Assembly (NCBI GenBank): GCA_964536205.1
Contig: CAZHVT010000004.1
Coordinates: forward strand, 17,960 to 81,959
Source: an uncultured Gammaproteobacteria bacterium
GTDB lineage: Bacteria > Patescibacteriota > Patescibacteriia > Magasanikbacterales > GCA-002688135
DNA length: 64,000 nucleotides
Direction of reading: 5' to 3'
The position numbers and the translations under genes are program-made. A model generated the notes under the pieces. The model worked only from the letters and a program-made list of their open reading frames with translations. It had not been told where the DNA came from and ran no database searches. Each line of letters begins with the position of its first letter. Positions within the stretch are counted from its first letter, which is position 1. This document shows positions 2,416 to 56,346 of this stretch, one piece after another.

Positions 2416-4497
2416 ATGCCCCGTCAATTCCCATTTGAAAAAGTACGAAACATCGGAATCATCGCTCATATCGATGCCGGAAAAACAACGGTAACGGAGC
2501 GCATTTTGTTTTACACAGGAAAGAAGCACAAAATCGGTGAGGTGCATGAAGGGGAGGCGACAATGGATTGGATGGAACAAGAACAAGAGCGAGGAATCAC
2601 AATTACATCTGCTGCAACAACAGCATTCTGGAATGATCATCGCTTAAACATTATTGATACGCCAGGACACATCGACTTTACTGTTGAGGTAAAGCGTTCA
2701 TTGCGAGTTCTTGATGGAGCGGTGGTGATTTTTGATGGTGTTGCCGGAGTAGAGCCACAATCAGAAACAAACTGGCATTACGCTGATGAATTTAGCGTGC
2801 CTCGCATTTGTTTCATTAATAAATTAGACAGAACGGGTGCGGATTTTTATGCAGACGTACAATCAATTCACGATCGTCTCACAAAAAATGCAGTACCGAT
2901 TCAGCTTCCAATCGGCGCAGAAGACGGATTTTTAGGCGTGATTGATTTGATTGAACAAAAATCTCATATCTTCAAAGATGATCTTGGAAAAGATGTTGAA
3001 GTTGGTGATATTCCGGAGGACATGAAAGAAAAAGCAGCAAAATATCGTGCAGAATTGATTGAAAAGATTGTAGAAAATGACGAAGATTTGATGAATGCAT
3101 ATTTGGAAGGAAATGAAATTCCAGTCGCAGATTTGAAACGCGTATTGCGAAAGGCTGTGGTTGCATTTGAGATTGTGCCTGTTTTATGTGGATCTGCATT
3201 GAAAAATAAGGGTGTCCAAATTTTGCTTGATGCGGTAGTAGATTATCTTCCATCACCACTAGATGTGCCCGCAACAAAAGGAAAAGATATTCATGATGAT
3301 GAAAAAGAAATCGAATGTCCTCCAGACGACTCAAAACCGTTTGCAGCACTCGCATTTAAAGTTGCGGTTGACCCATTCGTAGGACGATTAACTTTTTTCC
3401 GCGTCTATTCCGGAACACTCAAACAGGGGACAACAATTTTAAATAATACAACAGGGAAGAAAGAGCGTGTTGGTCGTATCGTTCGTATGCATGCAAATTC
3501 TCGTGAGGATGTGGATGAAGCATACGCAGGAGATATTGCAGCAGCTATCGGATTGAAAAATACATTTACTGGGCACACATTGACTGATGTAGATCATCCA
3601 TTAATGCTCGAGAAATTCACATTCCCAGAGCCAGTGATCTCCATGGCAGTTGAACCAAAAACAAAATCAGATCAAGAAAAAATGGGCGTAGCACTACAGA
3701 AACTCGCTGAAGAAGATCCAACATTCCGCGTCTATACAAATGAAGACACCATGCAAACGATTATTTGTGGGATGGGAGAACTTCATTTGGAAGTGATTGT
3801 TGATCGCATGCGCCGTGAATTTAAAGTTGAGGTTGGTGTTGGTCAGCCAGAAGTTGCATACAAAGAAACCATTACCAAAACAGCAGAAAATGTTGCCATC
3901 AAATACGTTAAGCAAACTGGTGGGCGCGGACAATACGGTCATGTTGTTATCAATATTGAACCACAAGAACGCGGTGTCGGATTTGAATTTATTGATAAAA
4001 TTAAAGGTGGGGTTATTCCAAAAGAATATATTCCAGCAGTTGAAAAGGGAATTAGTGGTGCACTTGATCGTGGAATTTTAGCCGGCTATCCTGTCATTGA
4101 TGTGAAAGCAACATTAGTTGACGGAAGTTATCATGATGTGGATTCATCTGAAGTCGCCTTTAAGATCGCAGGTTCTATGGCGATGCAAGCAGCTGCAAAA
4201 CAAGCAGGCTTGGCACTACTTGAACCAGTCATGAAAGTAGAGGTTTTGACACCAGAGCAATTCATGGGTGATGTGATCGGAAATTTAAACTCAAAACGTG
4301 GAACAGTTGATGAAATGTTAGAGCGAAAAGGTGTTCGAGTAGTTCGTGCACAAGTCCCTCTTTCAGAAATGTTTGGATATGCAACTGAATTGCGAAGTAT
4401 GACACAAGGACGTGCATCATACTCAATGGAGTTTGGTTCATACGAACAAGCACCACAAAATGTCGCAGCAGCAGTGATGGAGGGAAAAGCTAAGTAG
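2416..4497 (+). CDS. fusA: elongation factor G
   Basis: 693 aa. G-domain motifs [17 protein letters not shown] and NKLD, in str-operon order. Confidence 0.97.
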
Positions 4498-4512
4498 ACT
4501 AACAGCGAACAT

Positions 4513-4836
4513 ATGGAATGGCAGAGAATTATAGACCTAGTGAAAAAAACAGGGGAGCGATGTGTCGTAATCGATCCAGATCATGATGAACCTGTGGTCG
4601 TTATGCCGTTATCGGATTATGAATTTTTAGCAGATCGTGATGAAGAAAACGAATTTGATTTTGGACTAGATGACATGCCCAGTGACATCCCATTTGAGCC
4701 AGAAGCAGATTGGATCCCAGATTTTGCACAAGAAGAAGAACCTGTTTTGGAAGTAATTGAAGAACATATTCATGAAGAAACAGAGCCACTTGCTACAGAA
4801 GAATCATGGTATATCGAACCAATTGAGGGCGAATAA
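4513..4836 (+). CDS. hypothetical small acidic protein
   Basis: 107-aa ORF 16 nt after fusA, extremely D/E-rich in its C-terminal half. No recognised domain. Confidence 0.45.
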   Translation: MEWQRIIDLVKKTGERCVVIDPDHDEPVVVMPLSDYEFLADRDEENEFDFGLDDMPSDIPFEPEADWIPDFAQEEEPVLEVIEEHIHEETEPLATEESWYIEPIEGE

Positions 4837-28321: not shown

Positions 28322-28786
28322 TTAAATAATCACCTTAACTAAGATCGCCAACAAAAACGCCTGCATCACAAAGCCATGTTTCAAAGACATGTCTTTTTTT
28401 CTGTCAACAAAATAATTATGAAACCAGAAATGCACACGATGAAATGCTTCCAGCCACGGATGTTTATATAACTCACACAATCCAACCAACAAATCGGGGA
28501 GTACAGAACCAACTAATCCCCACGCAACAATAGTAGCATTTACATTTGGAACATAAGCAAAAACCCAAGCGACGAGCATAACAGCAGCAAGTGCATCAAA
28601 ACTTACCTTAGCAAGGGCCTGTTTCATCTTCTTGCCACTTTTATATTCCTTATACAAATGAGCATCGCCATGAGGAATCATGTCGATCAAAAGATGCGAA
28701 ATAAAGCCCAAAACAAAGGCCCAGAAAGCCGTAGGGCTATTTTGAGCTACAACTGCTCCAACTGCGACATGAGTGGCGATTAGCAT
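28322..28786 (-). CDS. membrane-bound metal-dependent hydrolase-like protein (YdjM/DUF457-like)
   Basis: 154 aa with TM segments and HLLIDMIPHGDAH. Confidence 0.45.
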   Translation of the reverse strand: MLIATHVAVGAVVAQNSPTAFWAFVLGFISHLLIDMIPHGDAHLYKEYKSGKKMKQALAKVSFDALAAVMLVAWVFAYVPNVNATIVAWGLVGSVLPDLLVGLCELYKHPWLEAFHRVHFWFHNYFVDRKKDMSLKHGFVMQAFLLAILVKVII

Positions 28787-28961
28787 AAAAGACTAATTTT
28801 ATTGGAATATAGTATAGCAGATTTCCTACAAAAAGTCATTTGTGGATTATGAACGCTAAAAAAGCACATTTTGTTGCATATATTATTACAAAATTAGTAT
28901 CAAATATAATACTAAATTTAGCAAAATAACCAAAAAAAGAAAAGAAAGGGTAAGACTACCA

Positions 28962-28990
28962 TTGACAAAATAACAAAAACATGATAGTAT
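28962..28990 (+). promoter_or_regulatory. strong sigma70-type promoter reading into the GC-rich island
   Basis: TTGACA, 17 nt, TAGTAT, about 60 nt upstream of the first island ORF. Confidence 0.5.
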
Positions 28991-29049
28991 ATGCGCGTAT
29001 TACATGAAGTAGTACGAGAACATTACAAGACGTAGGTTTTGGAGATGAC

Positions 29050-29265
29050 ATGCGGCGAATGTTGCGAAAAATAAAGCGCGTTATCCAGCACTGGCTGGAC
29101 GAGCAACGTGAGGCAATTTTCTTTTTCCGATACCTGTGGGTACGGACGAAAGTGGATTGCAGAATGGGTCTGATCGAGGAGTTTCTCTTCGACCCAAGCG
29201 CGTTGAAACAGCGCTACTTCGAAGAACGAAAGTTCGAGCAATCGCTGGCAGGTCGCTGGCGTTAG
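29050..29265 (+). CDS. hypothetical protein (island gene 1)
   Basis: 71 aa with a GGAG RBS. First ORF after the composition jump. Confidence 0.35.
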   Translation: MRRMLRKIKRVIQHWLDEQREAIFFFRYLWVRTKVDCRMGLIEEFLFDPSALKQRYFEERKFEQSLAGRWR

Positions 29266-29316
29266 CTTTCATATTGAGCCTGTTCCCGGGCTAAAAGAAA
29301 GGGGAGTGGAGCGAGC

Positions 29317-29628
29317 ATGAGTAAGAATTCCGTAGTCGTAGGTGATGGCATCACAGTGACGCGCGCGCAGTTGAAGCGCGCGCAGAAGCAGTATGCCAGA
29401 CGCAAAGGTGGCTTGCCGGGTTTCTGGCAGACAGCACTGGACCTCATGGGTCCGGAGCCGGAGCGGGTCAAGAAGACTCGTTCTGCCAAGCCGCGTCGGA
29501 AGCCGGTTGATACTGGTTTCTCGGAGGGTTACCTCGCTCAGCACAAGGCCGAGATCGGCCTGTCGAGTAAGGATCGGCGCCGCGAGCGTCGGGCCGCATC
29601 GAAGCGGTCTCGTCATCGTGACGAATAA
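29317..29628 (+). CDS. hypothetical highly basic protein (island gene 2)
   Basis: 103 aa. RBS GGGGAGTGGAG. K/R-rich C-terminal half (KKTRSAKPRRKP...RRRERRAASKRSRHRDE). Confidence 0.45.
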   Translation: MSKNSVVVGDGITVTRAQLKRAQKQYARRKGGLPGFWQTALDLMGPEPERVKKTRSAKPRRKPVDTGFSEGYLAQHKAEIGLSSKDRRRERRAASKRSRHRDE

Positions 29629-29800
29629 TCCTCGGCTTCGGCCAACCCCGAATCTACAAACTCTGGACTGTTGTGAAACAGACCACATAACCCGCGAGCA
29701 AGACCAAGGTCAAGTTCGCGGATCTAACTCGGTTGCTCAACAAAGTGTTGAGAGACCGTGAGGATCATTAACCCCATCCCTGGGGCAAAAGAATAAGGGC

Positions 29801-29869
29801 ATGGAGATGCAAATGTTGACGTTTGGCATTATCCAGCTGGCCGTTTTGGTCGGCGCCGTCATCCTGTAA
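29801..29869 (+). CDS. candidate 22-aa hydrophobic peptide (MEMQMLTFGIIQLAVLVGAVIL)
   Basis: Follows leader copy L1 (29757 CGTGAGGAT...AAAAGAATAAGGGC). Followed by hairpin 29893-29922. Confidence 0.3.
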   Translation: MEMQMLTFGIIQLAVLVGAVIL

Positions 29870-30002
29870 GGGTGGCTGGCGGGGGTGTCGCGGTTTACGA
29901 ACCTAGCGACACCTCTCCAACTTGAAAGCTTAATCATTCGATTCAGCTTTCGTGAGGAGACACACTCAAAGACCTTTGAAAAACACATAGTCAGGAGAGG
30001 TA

Positions 30003-30257
30003 ATGAACCCGGAATTGATGAATTTGTTGGTCGTACTGACCATGTGCTGGTTCTGCCTCGGCGCGATTGCTCACATGGTGGGTGGTCAAAAGTGGGCGAA
30101 CAAAGTCTGGAGATGGCCGTTCAAGATGATCGGAAAAGCCATCCGTTGGGTGTTGGTCCAGATTCGAGCTTTCATTCGTGAGGCTCTGGTCGGACTCTGG
30201 AATGCACTGCGAGGACGCAGAGGTAACCAAAACAACAACCGCGGCAACAACCCATGA
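30003..30257 (+). CDS. hypothetical 84-aa membrane protein: one TM helix, then an amphipathic basic helix and an RG/N-rich tail
   Basis: RBS AGGAGAGG. Leader CGTGAGGAG at 29951. Paired hairpins downstream at 30283-30355. Confidence 0.45.
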   Translation: MNPELMNLLVVLTMCWFCLGAIAHMVGGQKWANKVWRWPFKMIGKAIRWVLVQIRAFIREALVGLWNALRGRRGNQNNNRGNNP

Positions 30258-30383
30258 CTCAACCCTAACCCGCGAGCAGCATATGCGTCGCGGCAAGCCC
30301 TGTACCCAACGTGGTACAGGGATCCAAATCGATTTCGCAGTCCTGAATTGCGAAGTCACGAGGATTCATTCACAGGAGGAGAG

Positions 30384-30572
30384 ATGGAGAGTTTTCTGGG
30401 CAATGTCTGGGCGCTAGTCTGCCTTTGGGCTGGTCTGTGCATCTTCTATGCCATGATCAGCGCAGTCGTGATGTTCAAATACTCGGCGTGGGACATGTTC
30501 TTGCTGCCATTCAAGGCGATCATCATGCTGTGCAAAGGTCTCGGGAAACTCGTTCCCAGGACGTTCACCTAA
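30384..30572 (+). CDS. hypothetical 62-aa two-TM peptide
   Basis: RBS AGGAGGAGAG sits directly before ATG 30384. The upstream in-frame Met in the track lacks an RBS. Confidence 0.45.
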   Translation: MESFLGNVWALVCLWAGLCIFYAMISAVVMFKYSAWDMFLLPFKAIIMLCKGLGKLVPRTFT

Positions 30573-30617
30573 GAAGGGTGAGATCAAGAGTCAGGTGAAA
30601 ACACAATAAAAGGAGAA

Positions 30618-30683
30618 ATGATGGGAATCGAACTCATTCTGGGTCAGGCGCTTGTCTGCATCATGTACGCAGCTTTCCGCTAG
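30618..30683 (+). CDS. candidate 21-aa hydrophobic peptide (MMGIELILGQALVCIMYAAFR)
   Basis: RBS AAAAGGAGAA. Followed immediately by paired-hairpin module T1. Confidence 0.3.
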   Translation: MMGIELILGQALVCIMYAAFR

Positions 30684-30697
30684 GAGAGGTGTGTATC

Positions 30698-30750
30698 CGA
30701 GGATCTACGGATCCTCACAACGCAGCCGCGAACCAACATGGTTCGCGGCT
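30698..30750 (+). repeat. paired-hairpin module T1 (GAGGATC-tacg-GATCCTC, then CCGCGAACC-aacat-GGTTCGCGG)
   Basis: Two adjacent perfect stems. About 85% identical to T2 at 30966-31014. Confidence 0.6.
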
Positions 30751-30846
30751 CCAACTCGATCTCTGAGCACAGTATTCGTTCAGACTCGTGAGGAGATCTA
30801 CTGGTTACACCTAACCCCGGGTGGAAAGAAATGGGGAGGAGAGAGA

Positions 30847-30948
30847 ATGGACTGGCCAGGGATTCATCGAGACATGACGATTACAGCGATTTCGCTGGTA
30901 ACAATCATCTTTCTGTTCTGGGCATGCAGCGGCTCAAGCCTCTGCTAG
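30847..30948 (+). CDS. candidate 33-aa hydrophobic peptide (MDWPGIHRDMTITAISLVTIIFLFWACSGSSLC)
   Basis: Leader L2 (30787 CGTGAGGAG...ACCCCGGGTGGAAAGAAATGGGG), RBS GGAGGAGAGAG, followed by module T2. Confidence 0.35.
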   Translation: MDWPGIHRDMTITAISLVTIIFLFWACSGSSLC

Positions 30949-30965
30949 AAATTAACAACACATAT

Positions 30966-31014
30966 CGAGGGTCTACGGATCCTCGCGCAGTCCCGAACCA
31001 ACGCGGTTCGGGGC
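30966..31014 (+). repeat. paired-hairpin module T2
   Basis: GAGGGTC-tacg-GATCCTC, then CCCGAACC-aacgc-GGTTCGGGG. Confidence 0.6.
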
Positions 31015-31109
31015 TCCAAATCGGAAAGATTAATGAAAATTAAGCATCCGTGAGGAGTTACAAATAAAAGCCCTGACCCGGGGTAAAAGAAATGGGTTTT
31101 AGGAGGCAC

Positions 31110-31490
31110 ATGATCTTTTGGATCAGTCGTCACGAGCTGTCCCCGGCGCAGACCAAGGCTATCTTGGATCTGCACGGAGACGTTGAGGTAAAGCGACAGG
31201 AAGTCGTTTTCGATGAGGTGGGTGGTTTGAAATCGCTCATCGAGTCGGTAGATGAAGGAGACTTCGTCTACGCCGTGGCCGGTGCGCCGCACTACTTGGC
31301 AGCCGCTTTGAGTGGTTGTGAGTTCGGTGTTTTTCTCAATCACCCGGGTCGGCGTGCCAATGGCACGTTCGGTCTTCATTGCGTATTTCACGTGGTCGGT
31401 GGAGAGCTGGTAAAGGTCTGGGAAAACCCAGATCCGAACAGCGATGAGGGAGAGCGTCTCGATGTCACAGTCGAGCGTCCCATTCTTTAA
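31110..31490 (+). CDS. hypothetical 126-aa soluble protein (last island gene)
   Basis: Leader L3 (31049 CGTGAGGAG...GACCCGGGGTAAAAGAAATGGG), RBS AGGAGG. The ATG inside AAAGAAATGGG (31092) is in frame and is an alternative start. Confidence 0.45.
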   Translation: MIFWISRHELSPAQTKAILDLHGDVEVKRQEVVFDEVGGLKSLIESVDEGDFVYAVAGAPHYLAAALSGCEFGVFLNHPGRRANGTFGLHCVFHVVGGELVKVWENPDPNSDEGERLDVTVERPIL

Positions 31491-31568
31491 ACCAGAGGGC
31501 GTGCTATGGCACGTCACTCCAACTAAAATTTCAATGTATTGAAGTTTTTGAGGAGAAATGGGAAGAGC

Positions 31569-31596
31569 AAAAAACCGGCATTGTGCCGGTTTTTTG
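31569..31596. terminator. bidirectional terminator between the island and tRNA
   Basis: AAAAACCGGCA-ttgt-GCCGGTTTTTT. Confidence 0.6.
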
Positions 31597-31616
31597 TTTG
31601 CAGAAAAGCTTCTGAC

Positions 31617-31690
31617 TACCAGGGGGGAGAATTGAACTCCCGACCTCAGGCTTATGAGTCCTGCGCTCTAACCTTCTGAGCTACCCTGGT
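31617..31690 (-). tRNA. tRNA with anticodon CAU (elongator Met or Ile2-type)
   Basis: Minus-strand cloverleaf ACCAGGG-TA-GCTCAGAAGGTTAGAGC-G-CAGGA-CTCATAA-GCCTG-AGGTC-GGGAG-TTCAATT-CTCCC-CCCTGGT-A. CCA not encoded. Confidence 0.75.
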
Positions 31691-31746
31691 AGTCAATAGC
31701 TTTATGATTGCTAACGGCGATAGTATAAGAGAAATTGAAATGATCG

Positions 31747-32767: not shown

Positions 32768-32838
32768 GCGGGGGTCGGACTCGAACCGGCGACCTGCAGG
32801 TTATGGGCCTGCCGAGCTGCCAACTGCTCTACCCCGCG
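32766..32838 (-). tRNA. tRNA with anticodon CAU and initiator-like features (C1.A72 mismatch, A11:U24)
   Basis: CGCGGGG-TA-GAGC-AGTTGGCA-GCTC-G-GCAGG-CCCATAA-CCTGC-AGGTC-GCCGG-TTCGAGT-CCGAC-CCCCGCA-A. One T-stem mismatch. CCA not encoded. Confidence 0.65.
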
Positions 32839-32902
32839 GAAAAAATCTGAAAACAGAATCTTTCCGCGAAATACAGATCCGTTGATGCTATATACGTAGT
32901 TG

Positions 32903-32989
32903 TGGTACCGGGAGAGAGACTTGAACTCTCACGAGCTTGCGCTCATTGGATTTTGAGTCCAACGCGTCTACCAGTTCCGCCATCCCGGC
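32903..32989 (-). tRNA. tRNA-Leu (anticodon CAA), class II with long variable arm, CCA encoded
   Basis: GCCGGGA-TG-GCGG-AACTGGTAGA-CGCG-TTGGA-CTCAAAA-TCCAA-(long variable arm)-GAGAG-TTCAAGT-CTCTC-TCCCGGT-ACCA. Confidence 0.8.
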
Positions 32990-34139: not shown

Positions 34140-35009
34140 ATGGCATTAGGAAAAGGATTGAACGCACTTATTGGATCAAAGACATCCGGAAGCAAAAAGG
34201 CTTCAAAAAAACCGACGACCAAGGTTGAAGAAAAACAGTCGGTACAAGAGGGGAGTCTTATGATTCCTGTCTCGCAGATTCATGCAAACCCAGATCAGCC
34301 GCGTAAACAGTTCGGCATAGATGAATTACAAGATTTAGTACAATCAATTGAAAAGCATGGAATTTTGCAACCGCTTGTTGTGAAAGAGGAAGAGGATGGG
34401 ATGTATCAAATTATCGCAGGAGAGAGACGTTTTCGTGCATCACAGATGATCGGTATGACACGAGTGCCATGTACAGTAAAACCGGTTGATAAAAAACAGG
34501 AGCTAGAAATTTCTCTCGTTGAGAACATTCAGAGAAAAAATTTGAATCCACTTGAAGAAGCTTTTGCATATCAACGATTAACAGACGAATTTGGAATGAC
34601 GCAGGCAGAGGTTGGATCGCAGGTTGGTAAAAGTAGATCGTATGTTGCAAATACAATTCGATTGTTAGATTTGCCACAGGATGTTCAAAAAGGATTGAGT
34701 GAAGGAAAAATTTCACATACAAAGGCGCGCGCATTGTTAGGCTTGCCAACTATCAGACAACAACTAAAAGCGTTCTACGATATTGCAGGGGATAAGCAAA
34801 TTTCAACACGCGCAACAGAACAGATGGTACGAAAGCATCGAACAAAACTGGGGCGACGAGATCCATTACTAAACGCACTTGAAGAACGTCTCCGTGAAAA
34901 ATTGGGCACGAAAGTGTATGTGACAAATACAAAAGGAAAGGGAAGTGTGAAGATTGATTTCTTTTCAGATGAGGAGATGAATGGGGTTGTGCAGAAGATT
35001 TTGGGGTAG
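34140..35009 (+). CDS. parB: chromosome partitioning protein ParB/Spo0J
   Basis: ParB box GILQPLVV...IIAGERRFRAS, HTH, C-terminal dimerisation region. Confidence 0.9.
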   Translation: MALGKGLNALIGSKTSGSKKASKKPTTKVEEKQSVQEGSLMIPVSQIHANPDQPRKQFGIDELQDLVQSIEKHGILQPLVVKEEEDGMYQIIAGERRFRASQMIGMTRVPCTVKPVDKKQELEISLVENIQRKNLNPLEEAFAYQRLTDEFGMTQAEVGSQVGKSRSYVANTIRLLDLPQDVQKGLSEGKISHTKARALLGLPTIRQQLKAFYDIAGDKQISTRATEQMVRKHRTKLGRRDPLLNALEERLREKLGTKVYVTNTKGKGSVKIDFFSDEEMNGVVQKILG

Positions 35010-35260: not shown

Positions 35261-36883
35261 CTAGCGACTACCCAATCCGGAAAGGAATGAGCTGTGTGGC
35301 ACAGGGCCATCCGGTCGCGGCGGGTTCATGACATCGTCACAGCGCTTCAGGCTGTGGCGAAACATCTTTGTGGAGCATGCAACACCAGCGCATACGCCAT
35401 CAGCGATGCATTCGGGAGCCATTCGTCGGCTGTCGAATGCGATCAGAACCAGGTCCTTCAGCTCCTCCCACGGAATCGTGGTTGGCTTGATGTTCAATGC
35501 AGAGCGCGTACCGTTGGCAAGCAGTGGTATGCGCGCATCGTAGAACCAGTTTTCAGCACCCGGAATCTGACCTTCAGCAATCAGCTGATGCTTGTTGTAG
35601 CCGTAGAGAGTCGTCGTTCCATGTCGACGTTCAGCCATGCGGATCATCCGCGTAAGCTGATCGAGATAGGTTTTACGATTCGTATCGCTGTTGATCCGGC
35701 CGACGTTGAGCTTCTTGAGAACGCGGAAATTCGTCAAAATCACGACATGACCAGTCTCCGGATTTCGGATGACAATGATCGCAGCTTGATCGAACTTCCT
35801 TGCGCATCGGTCGAGACCGAACGTTGTCGTTTCGAGAAATACGATCTTCATGGTCTTGCGACCTACAGGAATGTCGACGAGTTCTTTGTTCGCGTCATAC
35901 TCAGCGCGGCCAACCGTGAAGAAGTGCTGTTGCTCAACATGCTTCATGATGACGAGCATCTGCATCTGAACAGGTCGATCGGTACGCCACAAATCACTAT
36001 GCTCCGACAGACTGCCAGGTTCGGCAAACATCAGTCGGGGAAACATCGCGAACTCGTAAAGCTCGATCTTGTTCTCTCGGACTCTCTGCTCGAGATGCCG
36101 ACAGTACGTGAGCAGCTGCTCCATGGCCGGATTGCTTTTGCAATCCAACTCTTGCGCCAGCGCATCGGGAGTTGCAGAGTAGAACGTCTGACCTTCCTCT
36201 CCGAACTGCTCCTTCATGAACTGCATCACCACCTCATATACAGAAGTGGGGTGAGCAAGGTCTGCTGGGGCAACATGTGCCGGCCAACGCATGCGTCCGA
36301 TCACGAGCTTCTCGAGGAAGTCATAGATCGGGTCATCAGGCGTATTGATGTTCTGCATCATCCGCACGAGCTGTGAAAGCTCGAGTGGTCCGCAGTACAT
36401 GCGCTTGTGGCGTGCATCTTCTTCGTCGACGTACTCCACAAAATCCTCGAGCTGCGCAGGAAGATTATCGCCAAGCGCATCGGCAATCAGCCGAATGCTA
36501 GAGGTGTTGACCTCACGTCCGAGTTCCGGATCCGGATGCTCGTCGAATCGACCACCACCAGTACCCACGAACAGAATCCCGCAATGTTCCTCGAGCTCAT
36601 CGGCAGTCAAATTGCAGATCCGAATATCATCGAATTTCGGATACACACCCAGGTCATTGCGCCCGGCGTCCGCATCTTTCCAGTCGCAGTAACCCTGCTC
36701 CTCGAGCAGATCTCGAATCTCCGGATTGTCCCAACTCAATGTGCCAGTAGCATCAATGAGATGATGAGGAGTGGTAAGATCCACACCCATGCTTTCGCCA
36801 AAGTGACGAAGCAAGATCAGAGCACAAAGCTCATCCAGATGTGGCTGTCGATGCATCACAATTACTCGTTTATCATTTTTCAA
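35261..36883 (-). CDS. GC-rich 540-aa protein; N-terminal motifs resemble MYG1/UPF0160 metal-dependent hydrolases (tentative)
   Basis: VIVMHRQPHLDELCALILL and ILFVGTGGGRFDEH resemble the H-x-x-H-x-DE...VGG...DHH signature. About 58% GC against an AT-rich genome. Long antisense ORFs are composition artefacts. Confidence 0.4.
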   Translation of the reverse strand: MKNDKRVIVMHRQPHLDELCALILLRHFGESMGVDLTTPHHLIDATGTLSWDNPEIRDLLEEQGYCDWKDADAGRNDLGVYPKFDDIRICNLTADELEEHCGILFVGTGGGRFDEHPDPELGREVNTSSIRLIADALGDNLPAQLEDFVEYVDEEDARHKRMYCGPLELSQLVRMMQNINTPDDPIYDFLEKLVIGRMRWPAHVAPADLAHPTSVYEVVMQFMKEQFGEEGQTFYSATPDALAQELDCKSNPAMEQLLTYCRHLEQRVRENKIELYEFAMFPRLMFAEPGSLSEHSDLWRTDRPVQMQMLVIMKHVEQQHFFTVGRAEYDANKELVDIPVGRKTMKIVFLETTTFGLDRCARKFDQAAIIVIRNPETGHVVILTNFRVLKKLNVGRINSDTNRKTYLDQLTRMIRMAERRHGTTTLYGYNKHQLIAEGQIPGAENWFYDARIPLLANGTRSALNIKPTTIPWEELKDLVLIAFDSRRMAPECIADGVCAGVACSTKMFRHSLKRCDDVMNPPRPDGPVPHSSFLSGLGSR

Positions 36884-36956: not shown

Positions 36957-37124
36957 CCACACAACTATCCTCAAAAACAAATCTGATATAACATTATTTT
37001 ACACTAAATTAACCAAAAATAATACCACAAAAACAGCCTTTTGTCAACCCCTACGAACATCTTGTTGCTCTACTAAAATAAGTGGTATTTATGGCATTTT
37101 ATGGGTAAGTGAGAGGTATCGAGA

Positions 37125-53068: not shown

Positions 53069-53860
53069 TCATATTTCGGTCACTATATTGAACGGTTCAA
53101 TATGAGAACAATGACCTGTTTTTTCATCGACATCAACAACGATTCCCGAAAGTATCGCTTCTCCAGATTCCGCAAAGTCATGTGAACGTGTGTGATCTGG
53201 ATGAAGAAAATTATTGAGAATCGTATCTTGTTTCACTCCTAAAACGCCATTACGATCACCACACATACCAATATCGGTTATGTAGCCAGTTCCTTGAGGG
53301 AGGATTCTCGCATCATTTGTTTGTACGTGTGTATGCGTTCCCCAAGCCGCGGAAACACGTCCATCCAAATGCCAACCCATCGCAATCCGCTCGCTCGTTG
53401 TTTCTCCATGAAAATCGAGCAGCGCGATTGAGATGTCTTTGTGTTCTGGCATGTTCAAGATTGTATCGATCACAGCAAACGGAGAATCAACCGTTTCCTT
53501 CATAAACATCTCACCCTGTAAGTTTAGCACAATAATAGTTGTACCAGCAACATCGAATGTGCGAAACCCCACACCAGGCGTTCCACCCGGATAATTCGCC
53601 GGACGAATCACATCAGCATCATCCAACAGAGGAATACCAGGAGGTTTTGAGAATGTATGATTACCACCAGTAAAACAATCGATATTCAGAGCGCGCATTT
53701 CATCTAAGGTACGCTGTGTAATCCCTTTTCCATGCGCTAAATTCTCAGCCTGAACAATCGTAAAGTCAGGCTTAAGATCAGCCTGCAATCCCGGCAGCTC
53801 TTTAGTGAGCGCCTTTCTTCCAAGTTTTCCTACAACATCGCCGAAGATTAAAAATCTCAT
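53069..53860 (-). CDS. ymdB: YmdB-like metallophosphoesterase (2',3'-cyclic-nucleotide phosphodiesterase family)
   Basis: Internal Met gives MRFLIFGDVVGKLGR...QAENLAHGKG...GNH. The longer track ORF N-terminus is not conserved. Confidence 0.85.
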   Translation of the reverse strand: MRFLIFGDVVGKLGRKALTKELPGLQADLKPDFTIVQAENLAHGKGITQRTLDEMRALNIDCFTGGNHTFSKPPGIPLLDDADVIRPANYPGGTPGVGFRTFDVAGTTIIVLNLQGEMFMKETVDSPFAVIDTILNMPEHKDISIALLDFHGETTSERIAMGWHLDGRVSAAWGTHTHVQTNDARILPQGTGYITDIGMCGDRNGVLGVKQDTILNNFLHPDHTRSHDFAESGEAILSGIVVDVDEKTGHCSHIEPFNIVTEI

Positions 53861-53861
53861 A

Positions 53862-54803
53862 TTAGTTCTTTTGGAGTAATGCCGCTTTAAATTTCTCTTC
53901 CACATCTGCCAATGTATTGAACGAATCAGAAAGAGAAGGCCAATCTTTGGCGACGGCATACGTATGACACAATCCAAATACAGCAGCTTGTTCACGCTTC
54001 AATGCAGCAAGATCAGAATCCTTCTGATCAAAGAATGAGGCACAGTCAGTAGCTCGTTTCGATGCGAGCGGTAGAGCAAAATACACGAAATGACCAAATT
54101 CAGATGGAGTCAATCCTTTTTTAGCTACTCGTTGAGCTAAAGACGTAATTGCTGCTCCTCCAATAAGCATATGATCGCTGTTCTGCTCTCCTTCAGTATA
54201 CAACGTAATAAAGTATGCTGATGCAGCATCGTACAATTCGGACGCCGAAACAGCTTTGTTGCGTACGGGTTTCGTGATGTATCTATAAAAACCATCTTTG
54301 TATGAAACCTTTGCTGCTTCCCAGGCTTTTTGCAAATCATCTTTTTGGATGAAGACATGTGGAAATTCAGCAGGATCATGAAGAAAGATTCGATCACCAT
54401 CGTAATCATACGCTAGAACATAATGATCGACACCCTTCAGGTACGTCGCATTGGGATTATAATTCAGATAACCCATATCAAGAGGGCCAAGAACTGCAGC
54501 TCCAGAATCGAGCGCCTGCTTCAATTGTTCAAAAGGAAAATCATCAGGAGATTCCGACACATGAACGTCATAGCTAAAGCCAAGTACATCTAATACTTTG
54601 GTGATACCAAGATCCGGTTCAAGTGATTGATTGTTGAAGTACAACAGATTCTTGTCTGTATCCATGGAGGCACCCAATCCAACACCAGAGAGAACTTCAA
54701 TTGTCGCAGGCGAAACATCTTCTCCAATCGAGCGTAAAAGCATCGAAGCAGAATGTGCATAGCAGTATGCTCCGTTTCCGATATAGGGAACGTAGGTTGC
54801 CAT
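53862..54803 (-). CDS. hypothetical protein with an N-terminal conserved Cys (possible papain-like/BtrH-N-like fold, tentative)
   Basis: 313 aa, GNGAYCYAHSASMLL near the N-terminus. Inserted between rny and ymdB. Confidence 0.45.
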   Translation of the reverse strand: MATYVPYIGNGAYCYAHSASMLLRSIGEDVSPATIEVLSGVGLGASMDTDKNLLYFNNQSLEPDLGITKVLDVLGFSYDVHVSESPDDFPFEQLKQALDSGAAVLGPLDMGYLNYNPNATYLKGVDHYVLAYDYDGDRIFLHDPAEFPHVFIQKDDLQKAWEAAKVSYKDGFYRYITKPVRNKAVSASELYDAASAYFITLYTEGEQNSDHMLIGGAAITSLAQRVAKKGLTPSEFGHFVYFALPLASKRATDCASFFDQKDSDLAALKREQAAVFGLCHTYAVAKDWPSLSDSFNTLADVEEKFKAALLQKN

Positions 54804-54807
54804 AGGT

Positions 54808-56346
54808 TTATCGTGCTAATTCGATAACCCGCTGCTCACGAATCACGGTTACGCGAATCTCTCCTGGATATTGCAATTCTTGTTCAATTTTGTGTGCGAT
54901 GTCGCGCGCCAAAGTATGCGCAGCATAATCATCAACCTTAGAAGGATGCACAAACACACGAACCTCACGCCCCGCAGAAATCGCATATGCTTTTTCAACA
55001 CCAGGAAATGATGTCGCCACATTTTCCAAACCTTCCAATCGTTTAATATAGAATTCGTATGTTCCTTTTCGTGCGCCCGGACGTGCACCAGAAAGTGCAT
55101 CGGCTGCCTTACAAATCGCACCTAACAAAGTTTTCGGATTATCCTCATGATGAGCAATCGAACAATACGCAATCTCTTCAGGAACATTAAATTTCTTCAT
55201 CAATGCATATCCCAATTCCGGATGACCACCGTCATTTTCATGATCAATAGACTTTCCAATATCATGGAATAATCCAGCTGTTTTCGCTAAAGTCACATCC
55301 ATTCCTAATTCACCAGCCATCATCCCACATAAATGCGCAACTTCGAGTGAATGCATCATATTATTTTGACCATAAGAAGTTCGGTATTTCAATCGCCCTA
55401 AAATCGATGTCAATTTCGGATCAAACCCCGTCAATCCCATTTCATACAACATTTCCTCACCAGCCTTTTTGATATCAAGCGCCAATTCCTTTTTAGCTAA
55501 CTCAATTGTTTCTTCAATACGCGCTGGTTGAATACGACCATCCTCAAGTAATTTCTCCAACGTAATCCGCGCAATCTGACGACGAATAGGGGAGAATCCA
55601 GAAATCGTAATCGCTCCGGGTGTATCATCAATAATCAACTCACAGCCTGTAACTTTTTCTAGGGTCTTGATATTACGACCTTCCTTACCAATAATTCGAC
55701 CCTTCATATCTTCAGAAGGAAGCTCAACAGTTGTAGTTGTGGTTTCAGCAGAGTGAGACCCTGCGTAACGCTGCATCACAGTCGTCAAAATTTTCTTCGC
55801 CTTTAATTCAAATTCTTCAGTATTACGCTTTTGCAACTTAAACATACGCTGCGCTAAATCGTCAGCATATTGTTTTTCCATTTTTCCGTACATTTGTTCG
55901 AGTGCTTCTTCCTTCGTCAAACCTGCGATAGTTTGTAATTTATCGATCGCTTCCTGACGAACTTGCGCCAAATCATTCTTATGTTTCTCAACGGCATCAA
56001 TTTTCTGTACTAATTTTTGTTTGGTAGCTTCGATTTCCTTTTGATTATTCTCAACAGCAACTTCACGCTTCTCAATGCGTTGAATCATGCTTTTGAACTC
56101 ATTGCGAGATTTTTGCTCTTCACGCTTTGCTTCATCAACGATTTTCATCGCCTTATCTTTTGCAGATAACAATGCTTCTCGCTCTTTTGTTTTAGCATCA
56201 TCGATGATTTTCTTAGCTTTCGCTTCGATAGAATTAAGTTGTCCTTGTGCGATGGTGCGGCGGGCAACATATCCGATGGCAGCACCAATCAGACCTGTTA
56301 CTGCTGCAATCGCAAGTGCAATTGTAGTAGACATAAAAACGCTCAA
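54808..56346 (-). CDS. rny: ribonuclease Y
   Basis: N-terminal TM, coiled coil, KH domain, HD domain (HDIGK...). 512 aa. Confidence 0.9.
   Translation of the reverse strand: MSVFMSTTIALAIAAVTGLIGAAIGYVARRTIAQGQLNSIEAKAKKIIDDAKTKEREALLSAKDKAMKIVDEAKREEQKSRNEFKSMIQRIEKREVAVENNQKEIEATKQKLVQKIDAVEKHKNDLAQVRQEAIDKLQTIAGLTKEEALEQMYGKMEKQYADDLAQRMFKLQKRNTEEFELKAKKILTTVMQRYAGSHSAETTTTTVELPSEDMKGRIIGKEGRNIKTLEKVTGCELIIDDTPGAITISGFSPIRRQIARITLEKLLEDGRIQPARIEETIELAKKELALDIKKAGEEMLYEMGLTGFDPKLTSILGRLKYRTSYGQNNMMHSLEVAHLCGMMAGELGMDVTLAKTAGLFHDIGKSIDHENDGGHPELGYALMKKFNVPEEIAYCSIAHHEDNPKTLLGAICKAADALSGARPGARKGTYEFYIKRLEGLENVATSFPGVEKAYAISAGREVRVFVHPSKVDDYAAHTLARDIAHKIEQELQYPGEIRVTVIREQRVIELAR

Follow-up and report, generated by a model that had tools for sequence, protein, structure and literature searches.

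A covarying two-hairpin RNA module between the small genes of a GC-rich island in a marine Parcubacteria chromosome

A stretch of 64,000 nucleotides from contig CAZHVT010000004.1 (assembly GCA_964536205.1; hereafter the window) belongs to a low-GC marine Parcubacteria chromosome and contains a GC-rich island of about 2.6 kb, probably a single operon, in which a conserved element recurs between small genes; the locus raises the question of what this element is, on which strand and in which molecule it acts, and what it does for the genes around it. A sequence-only reading of the same letters had described a tandem array of small hydrophobic-peptide genes with a recurring conserved element, and this description was borne out. 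It had also taken the array as a series of transcription-unit-like cassettes, and this part did not survive: one promoter and one terminator were found, at the edges of the island, and the repeated motif turned out to be one half of a covarying RNA hairpin.

The repeated motif and its fold

The motif, CGTGAGGA(G/T), is located at 29757, 29951, 30787 and 31049; the fifth site previously listed, at 30357, carries the variant CACGAGGAT, and a sixth copy, TTTGAGGAG, which ends at 31555 within a hairpin at 31516-31557, had been missed. The broader pattern TCCAA-N18-40-GAGGAK exhibits nine matches in the window against 1.43 expected, five of the nine inside 1.7 kb of the island, and none of 100 shuffles reached nine. 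The recurrence of the motif was thereby upheld, whereas a fixed spacing to the start codons was not, as the distance from GAGGAG to the start codon varies from 19 to 53 nucleotides (nt). The GAGGAG of the module resembles a Shine-Dalgarno (SD) sequence but is never placed as a working one.

The motif represents the 3' arm of a hairpin of 41-46 nt, here termed hp2, with the form (C/A)UCC-AA-NN-[8-11 bp stem]-Y-GA-GGA(G/U), in which an outer helix of 4-5 base pairs (bp), formed by (C/A)UCC with GGA(G/U), is separated by an asymmetric internal loop (5' AA-NN, 3' Y-GA) from an inner helix of 8-11 bp that is free in sequence, the AA and GA of the loop being invariant. Directly 5' of hp2 lies a GC-rich hairpin of 8-12 bp without a U tract, termed hp1, and upstream of hp1 a cUACGg- or GNRA-tetraloop hairpin is often observed. 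A covariance model trained on 20 copies gives exactly six matches in the 64-kb window, all on the plus strand, all in the island and all at 39-50 bits, with the next match at 13.5 bits. The alignment and folding of the leaders, proposed earlier as a check, thus returned a recurring covarying hairpin, and the six spacers of the window, compared with shuffles, show z values of -3.1 to -5.8 on the plus strand and weaker ones on the minus strand in each case. The modules, with their covariance-model scores and folding z values, and the GNRA hairpin of the island are the following.

29665-29684, plus strand: GNRA-tetraloop hairpin GGACUGUU-GUGA-AACAGACC
29692-29767, plus strand: module 1, hp1 at 29692-29721 and hp2 at 29721-29767 (AUCU...GGAU type); 49.7 bits, z -5.2
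29881-29961, plus strand: module 2, hp1 and hp2; 47.5 bits, z -4.3
30270-30367, plus strand: module 3 (the 30357 site, CACGAGGAT), two upstream hairpins and hp2 of AUCC...GGAU type; 45.8 bits, z -5.8
30698-30797, plus strand: module 4, cUACGg hairpin at 30698-30716, hp1 at 30724-30750, hp2 at 30748-30797; 39.1 bits, z -4.0
30966-31059, plus strand: module 5, cUACGg hairpin at 30966-30985, hp1 at 30989-31015, hp2 at 31013-31059; 41.7 bits, z -3.7
31498-31557, plus strand: module 6, terminal, hp1 at 31498-31515 and hp2 at 31516-31557; 46.0 bits

The fold was supported by covariation in an alignment of 20 copies from three lineages. Standard pairs occupy 88% of the cells, against 31-50% when the partners are slid (31-48% in the 20-copy alignment), and double-sided changes were counted in 55-63 cells against about 21-23 in shuffles (55 against 20.6 ± 3.6 in the 20-copy alignment), while the covariation score of the 20 copies, 0.51 against 0.19, was reached by none of 500 shuffles; the same fold was obtained independently from RNAalifold. 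The outermost pair of hp2 changes from C-G to A-U in four copies, and the outer helix occurs as CUCC/GGAG and AUCC/GGAU, as well as CCCC/GGGG in a copy from the related locus L071 on which the model had not been trained. The model also matches untrained copies in L071/L072 and in L073-L075, and the covariation statistics remained unchanged when three untrained copies were added to the alignment. In Rfam, only tRNAs reach the gathering score, and nothing credible was detected at E up to 10 on 28900-31620. Two further identities were tried and rejected: a tRNA-like minihelix (hp1 followed by N-CCA), since the copy W1 has CUA and the related modules of L030 and L047 are without CCA, and a simple kink-turn, since two or three extra unpaired bases lie on the strand without GA.

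The strand on which the structure acts was assessed from wobble pairs, folding energies and tetraloops. Of the wobble pairs in the modules, 25 read G·U on the top strand and 9 read A·C, and the plus-strand RNA fold is the stabler one in 16 of the 20 modules, with a summed ΔΔG of -95 kcal/mol. Within 15 kb of islands, CUACGG occurs 18 times on the plus strand and twice on the minus strand, nearly always between complementary arms, against 7 and 6 occurrences in the rest of the window, and the GNRA hairpin of L073 reads CUAUC-GAGA-GAUAG, a fully compensatory change. The stability of UNCG and GNRA loops is a property of RNA. From the G·U bias, the plus-strand folding and the plus-strand tetraloops it is therefore concluded that the module structures function in the sense RNA.

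The GNRA hairpin has relatives of another kind. A 17-mer probe made from it matches six viral contigs, where the matches were rejected as modules, being ordinary terminator hairpins with a U tract and with no modules nearby; in two low-GC viral contigs of IMG/VR (L011 and L013), a terminator-like GGGACUGUU-GUGA-AACAGCCC with a U tract recurs, and its stem-loop is identical to that of the island hairpin.

Transcription signals and genes of the island

A consensus scan located a single promoter and a single terminator, one at each edge of the island.

28962-28990, plus strand: σ70-type promoter, TTGACA-17-TAGTAT with extended -10 TG; 10/12 consensus matches plus the TG
31568-31596, plus strand: canonical bidirectional intrinsic terminator, 13-bp stem and T tract; conserved in L001 and L005

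The scan returned no σ70-like site on the plus strand at 29073-31560 and nothing promoter-like on the minus strand of the island, where an antisense promoter search had been suggested. Hairpin terminators had been thought to close each unit; the spacer hairpins are without U tracts, and no consensus terminator follows any peptide gene. The same promoter, just past which the GC-rich DNA of the window begins, is conserved in L005, L001 and L073, where the terminator likewise marks the other edge of the island, and promoter-like matches within the arrays of L001 and L005 stay at chance level and lie away from the modules. The primary 5' untranslated region opens with a hairpin followed by GAGA/GAGGAG-AUCAUU, which resembles the 3' half of a module together with the sequence found after several modules. 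As one edge promoter and one edge terminator were found, with none internal, the units are read as cistrons, and the island is probably a single operon. In L001, an AT-rich insertion of about 150 nt (at about 4027-4185) splits an hp1 hairpin of the array and carries a promoter-like TTGAAC...TAGTAT that resembles the main promoter of the island and was left unflagged by the scan.

Of the products of the operon, two are basic soluble proteins, five are small membrane peptides or proteins and one is a small Rossmann-like protein; they are encoded by the following open reading frames (ORFs; lengths in amino acids, aa; TM, transmembrane).

29050-29265, plus strand: 71-aa basic soluble ORF, first cistron, no family match found; homologues in L001 (84 aa), L073 and L071, absent from L005
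29317-29628, plus strand: 103-aa very basic ORF, net charge +16, conserved in four lineages
29801-29869, plus strand: 22-aa hydrophobic peptide MEMQMLTFGIIQLAVLVGAVIL, with a near L005 orthologue
30003-30257, plus strand: 84-aa membrane protein with one TM segment, a W..PFK motif, an amphipathic helix and an R/N-rich tail
30384-30572, plus strand: 62-aa membrane protein with two hydrophobic segments
30618-30683, plus strand: 21-aa hydrophobic peptide, with a 24-aa positional counterpart in L005
30847-30948, plus strand: 33-aa hydrophobic peptide MDWPGIHRDMTITAISLVTIIFLFWACSGSSLC; the L001 homologue likewise begins MDWP
31110-31490, plus strand: 126-aa soluble α/β protein, Rossmann-like, with weak CARF/Csx20-like similarity

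The five hydrophobic ORFs of 22, 84, 62, 21 and 33 aa and the 126-aa ORF named in the sequence-only reading are all present, and hydropathy gives one or two TM-like segments in each of the five, in agreement with what had been expected of them. For each of the five, one or more other lineages possess a counterpart, and the substitutions follow a coding-type pattern; between the 22-aa ORF and its L005 orthologue, for example, three changes are synonymous and one is a replacement. The 62-aa ORF is a distant paralogue of the 84-aa ORF, the PFK motif being common to both, and no module lies between the 62-aa and 21-aa ORFs. The structure predicted for the 126-aa protein has a pLDDT of 87. No recognisable homologue of the island proteins was detected in Pfam, PHROGs, PADLOC or NCBIfam (the PHROGs negative excludes the 33-aa peptide, which is so short that it would hardly score), and together with the negative result from Rfam this agrees with the earlier statement that no homologue is recognisable. 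The island proteins are exceedingly rare: the 103-aa and 84-aa proteins have one other cluster each among 5.8 billion sequences, and of 1.8 billion representatives 12 match a profile built for the 84-/62-aa family. The 126-aa family is absent from IMG/VR. In L005 (6001-6383), the 126-aa gene is called as 83 aa because the sequence has one C more than that of the window (aatccaccc against aatcaccc) and the frame is shifted, so that it is either a pseudogene or an assembly error. The product of one L001 cassette (4300-4710) is Csx20-like (PADLOC, E 1e-8; NCBIfam CAS_Csx20, E 8.6e-9, below the cut-off), and no cas genes were seen near it.

A second recurring element is observed ahead of some of the ORFs and runs from a small hairpin (CCC-GGG, its loop rich in C) through AAAAGAAA(U)GGGG to an SD. 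The sequence-only reading had recognised it at three leaders, where it is indeed present; with a further copy at 29285, it occurs four times in the window (29285, 29772, 30810 and 31070), and L001 and L005 retain it before the orthologous ORFs.

29279-29316, plus strand: leader copy a, C-rich-loop hairpin, AAAAGAAAGGGG and SD; precedes the 103-aa ORF
29772-29800, plus strand: leader copy b; precedes the 22-aa ORF, L005 orthologue near-identical
30810-30846, plus strand: leader copy c; precedes the 33-aa ORF
31070-31109, plus strand: leader copy d; precedes the 126-aa ORF and is kept before its L001 and L005 orthologues

The ATG within AAAGAAATGGG had been offered as an upstream ORF or alternative start, and this was abandoned because the ATG is unconserved, the orthologues having AAAGAAAGGGG or an out-of-frame ATG. 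An H-type pseudoknot in the leader is geometrically plausible, and its candidate pairing columns are invariant, so that no covariation signal is possible. Another conserved 5' leader was observed about 130 nt upstream of the 126-aa homologue in groundwater lineages (L026, L032, L034 and L035), in the order GCTACTCATGTCGAGGAGC, hairpin, TTTCACGCTCACGGCCACAAGCCACGAGCA, and a tRNA gene lies about 500 nt from it in L032 and L044.

Chromosomal setting, turnover and base composition

The island is bordered on the left by a YdjM-like gene (154 aa, 28322-28786, minus strand) and on the right by tRNA-Met (31616-31691, minus strand), which is followed by a metallophosphoesterase gene. The remaining window is core chromosome, which includes the S12/EF-G/EF-Tu/L3/L4/L2/SecY cluster, ScpAB, ParAB, RelA/SpoT, TopA, DprA, EngA, TruB and IF-2, as well as RNase Y and YmdB, encoded at 53069-56346; a scan of the 37 larger window ORFs detected no recombinase, reverse transcriptase, Cas or Nop-domain protein. 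Among named relatives the nearest is the marine "Parcubacteria group bacterium" metagenome-assembled genome GCA_002688135.1, the source of locus L005, with flanking proteins 89-98% identical to those of the window.

Besides the window, four further Parcubacteria lineages have modules, and the chromosomal site is shared: the island stands beside the same metallophosphoesterase gene in all five lineages and beside tRNA-Met wherever this was examined (the window, L001, L005 and L073). The gene content of the island differs among the five lineages, and in L001 the array contains eight modules, along with several other cassettes. Three differences interrupt the collinearity between the window and L005, namely a 19-aa mini-ORF found only in L005, the deletion of the 71-aa ORF in L005, and the mutual replacement of a 33-aa cassette (window) and a 301-aa cassette (L005). 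The ends of this replacement fall exactly after the GAGGAG of one module and before the next cUACGg hairpin; module edges thus bound some indels but not all, the mini-ORF and the 71-aa deletion being the exceptions. Some orthologous modules display stepwise compensatory changes, such as window module 2, which differs from the L005 copy at 4021 by three compensatory pair changes, while others have a wholly different inner hairpin, which argues for exchange between modules; the inner hairpin of module 6 is that of the terminal module of L001.

No match to the covariance model appears in 35 loci that carry remoter homologues of the 126-aa protein. A search with the module pattern was negative in IMG/VR, and in 185,579 genomes it gave nine single matches in unrelated taxa, about the number expected by chance and with no array. 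A phage or plasmid origin was considered and rejected, as blastn of the island against 50,697 phage records was empty, PHROGs gave no match and IMG/VR contained neither the 126-aa family nor the module pattern. Three contigs of candidate phyla radiation (CPR) type with distant 126-aa homologues (L030, 7470-8600; L053, 7170-8480; L047, 2150-2280) have their own repeated two-hairpin spacers around small genes, such as GGC-UUCC-[long hairpin]-GGAA, similar to the module in layout and different in sequence, again with sense-strand G·U pairs, and in most loci with distant homologues the 126-aa homologue sits in a local GC spike. Between tRNA-Met and tRNA-Leu, L005 (7933-8292) and L006 (2003-2368) carry a bAvd / 23S-rRNA-IVP-like gene for a four-helix bundle, which is missing from the matching spot of the window (32838-32903).

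An imperfect 17-nt direct repeat (13/17 identical) at 28945-28961 and 31605-31621 exactly brackets the island, the right copy overlapping the 3' end of tRNA-Met. Integration at tRNA-Met was nevertheless rejected, since the repeat is unconserved in L001 and L005, where extra DNA parts the terminator from the tRNA; judged from these sequences the bracketing is probably due to chance. In the comparison of the window, L001 and L005, no conserved att repeat or integrase was found at the island.

The island differs from its surroundings in base composition, with a GC content of 52-53% at 29-31 kb against about 41% elsewhere in the window. The GC content rises from 26% to 44-58% at 29000, directly past the promoter, and drops again at the terminator, and GC at third codon positions (GC3) reaches 52-78% in the island ORFs against 27-43% in host genes. 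High expression was ruled out as the cause, because the EF-Tu, EF-G and ribosomal protein genes have a GC3 of 28-31%, and recent acquisition fits badly, because promoter, terminator and position are conserved. Between lineages, 35-51% of four-fold sites are identical in island genes (ORFs with at least 17 such sites) and 27-63% in host genes, so that saturation at these sites is about equal in both, and GC at four-fold sites stays mostly high in every lineage. Neither cause thus accounts for the GC3 contrast, which is limited to the transcribed region.

A second GC-rich gene of the window (540 aa, 35261-36883, minus strand, GC3 60%) has its own σ70-type promoter at about 37018-37046, a 5' hairpin and a terminator, and its product has no match in Pfam, PHROGs, PADLOC or NCBIfam. 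An ORF without a Pfam match (489-523 aa, cut by the locus end) occupies the same place after ParB in L006 and L073 and was likened to the 540-aa gene by position only. The cumulative GC skew peaks at about 35-36 kb, where gene orientation flips from plus to minus beside parAB, and this switch near 35000 could be a replication landmark.

Readings of the module

In the preferred reading, to which a probability of about one half is assigned, the modules are intercistronic RNA processing or stability elements that are also breakpoints for cassette turnover. They would punctuate a polycistronic mRNA post-transcriptionally, as nuclease barriers or as a processing site: the upstream cistron would keep a protected 3' end formed by the stable hairpins, the downstream cistron would begin with a hairpin or with the SD-like GAGGAG and would be marked, and perhaps protected, at its 5' end, and the conserved loop of hp2 would be the recognition point for a nuclease or another protein. 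A gene for RNase Y is present in the window, which makes decay of the RNase Y type a plausible context; secondary structure close by directs the RNase Y-type processing of operon transcripts. Being repeats, the modules would serve as cassette breakpoints as well, and turnover at their edges would be a by-product of the repeated sequence, as in the phage repeats discussed below.

Several observations weigh against this reading. Co-transcription, cleavage and stabilisation are deduced from sequence; with 4-5 bp, the outer helix falls short of a classical RNase III site, and hp1 and hp2 are separated by hardly any single-stranded spacer. The conserved loop nucleotides would be just as compatible with a protein-binding site, a regulatory element or a ribozyme core, the edge-bound replacement of cassettes and the swaps of inner hairpins could point to a role at the DNA level, and punctuation of the RNA leaves the GC-rich codon usage of the whole transcribed region unaccounted for.

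Intercistronic processing and stabiliser hairpins are known from the RNase III sites in the early region of phage T7, from repetitive extragenic palindromes and bacterial interspersed mosaic elements (REP/BIME) and from the 5' stabilisers of stabilising Shine-Dalgarno (STAB-SD) type. Like the T7 sites, hp2 recurs in similar form between the cistrons of one putative transcript, as a hairpin whose internal loop is asymmetric; stable hairpins would remain at 3' ends, and the putative new 5' end has an SD-like sequence close to it, as in the T7, REP and STAB-SD cases. The island differs from T7 and REP elements in its lower helix of 4-5 bp, in that cleavage is putative, and in that the element is limited to one island instead of being genome-wide. 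Another parallel is given by the promoter early stem-loops (PeSLs), short conserved regulatory repeats that flank small ORFans in hyperplastic regions of T4-type phages and include a strong σ70 promoter as well as a functional terminator (Arbiol et al. 2010, PMC2839356; PMC4122927). In both systems, indels and replacements between relatives end in the repeats; the island repeats, in contrast, are without promoter or U tract, their conserved part is a covarying internal-loop RNA hairpin, and they lie in a chromosome between housekeeping genes, whereas PeSLs lie in phage genomes. Tandem interspaced guide RNA (TIGR) arrays were compared as well; these belong to Tas (Nop-domain) systems, which occur in phages and CPR bacteria, and their compact stem-loop units place two free spacers between box C (CCA) and box D (UG) (PMC12045711). 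Tandem structured units in CPR-type genomes, with CCA and UG flanking a variable segment, are common to both, but the island units are 200-900 nt apart with ORFs between them and the CCA-UG segment is self-complementary. A TIGR-Tas array was rejected, there being no Nop/Tas protein among the window ORFs scanned and no Pfam match for the island proteins, and the CCA-UG segment being a hairpin.

Four other explanations were weighed. The module might be the binding site of a dedicated RNA-binding regulator, with the basic 103-aa protein as candidate, controlling translation or read-through of hp1 in the manner of λ N/nut or a coat-protein operator. The unpaired AA and GA, conserved between helices of free sequence, are typical of RNA recognised by protein, a 103-107-aa protein of net charge +16 is present at or near the 5' end of the array in four lineages, and the module GAGGAG is SD-like yet never at a working SD position; against these stand the lack of an RNA-binding domain or family match in the 103-aa protein, the L071/L072 fragments, which have modules and no such protein in the stretch covered, and the hp1 hairpins without U tract, which would leave little termination to overcome, so that this explanation is considered unlikely. 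A small self-cleaving ribozyme of a new kind, or the substrate of a dedicated endonuclease, cutting at every spacer, would match the roughly 11 nearly invariant nucleotides concentrated in the loop between covarying helices, the tandem copies in a mobile-looking island and the lack of a matching Rfam family. It appears very unlikely, given that the element resembles no known ribozyme core, is very small with no predicted tertiary contact, and that the distant L030 and L047 keep the two-hairpin layout and not the loop sequence.

At the DNA level, the modules could be recombination sites that fold as single-stranded DNA like the attC sites of integrons, in an array with no neighbouring integrase comparable to the clusters of attC sites lacking integron-integrase (CALIN). 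The likeness includes one upstream promoter ahead of co-oriented small ORFs that are promoterless by scan, repeats conserved in structure and free in sequence with short conserved flanks, a single locus whose content differs among five lineages and whose breakpoints lie at module edges, and CCAAC in about half of the copies, resembling the RYYYAAC core. The island is, however, without RYYYAAC/GTTRRRY cores, GTTRRRY being absent and AA/GA unpaired instead of AAC/GTT; G·U pairs, folding energies and RNA-type cUACGg and GNRA loops favour the sense, top-strand RNA, whereas the recombinogenic strand of attC is the bottom one; neither IntI nor another tyrosine recombinase was found beside the array or among the 37 larger window ORFs scanned; and the 19-aa mini-ORF and the 71-aa deletion of L005 are not module-bounded, all of which makes such sites distinctly unlikely. 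The last explanation is the one advanced at the outset, in which each unit would be an independent toxin-, holin- or bacteriocin-like gene with its own promoter, leader and terminator, possibly under antisense control as in type I toxin-antitoxin systems. The 21-33-aa peptides are extremely hydrophobic and in the size range of Ibs, Ldr and TisB, and repeated units, very small hydrophobic peptides and long, structured 5' regions are common to the island and to Ldr/Rdl, Ibs/Sib and Zor/Orz. The type I comparison fails on the lack of promoter-like sites for each unit on either strand, while the edge promoter fits the σ70 consensus, on the lack of antisense RNA genes, on hairpins without U tracts, on a minus strand that folds less well, and on peptides mostly of different, non-paralogous families with soluble proteins interleaved; no leader peptide and no recognisable transporter or modification enzyme for a bacteriocin, and no recognisable lysin for a holin, were found among the island proteins, and independent units of this kind are therefore regarded as extremely improbable.

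Intercistronic processing or stability elements with a secondary role in turnover thus remain the preferred reading, and repeated intercistronic regulatory elements are of a known kind, while this particular element is absent from Rfam and previously undescribed. In a bolder form, hp2 would be a new catalytic RNA or the signal of a dedicated nuclease at every spacer and would also supply the cassette ends, forming an integrase-free platform specific to the CPR with punctuation at the RNA level and a GC-rich composition selected in the transcript; this is put forward as a distinctly improbable extension.

If the preferred reading is true, the module would represent a covariation-supported RNA motif outside Rfam, in a phylum with almost no known RNA biology, and a reduced genome would give each gene of an operon its own RNA ends by means of repeats and not by separate promoters and terminators. 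The sharp and persistent GC3 contrast raises the question of what maintains base composition locally. Small membrane peptides and CARF/Csx20-like proteins are also gained and lost at the island from one close relative to the next, and as such a hot spot of turnover it may mark a locus of conflict or interaction of these episymbionts.

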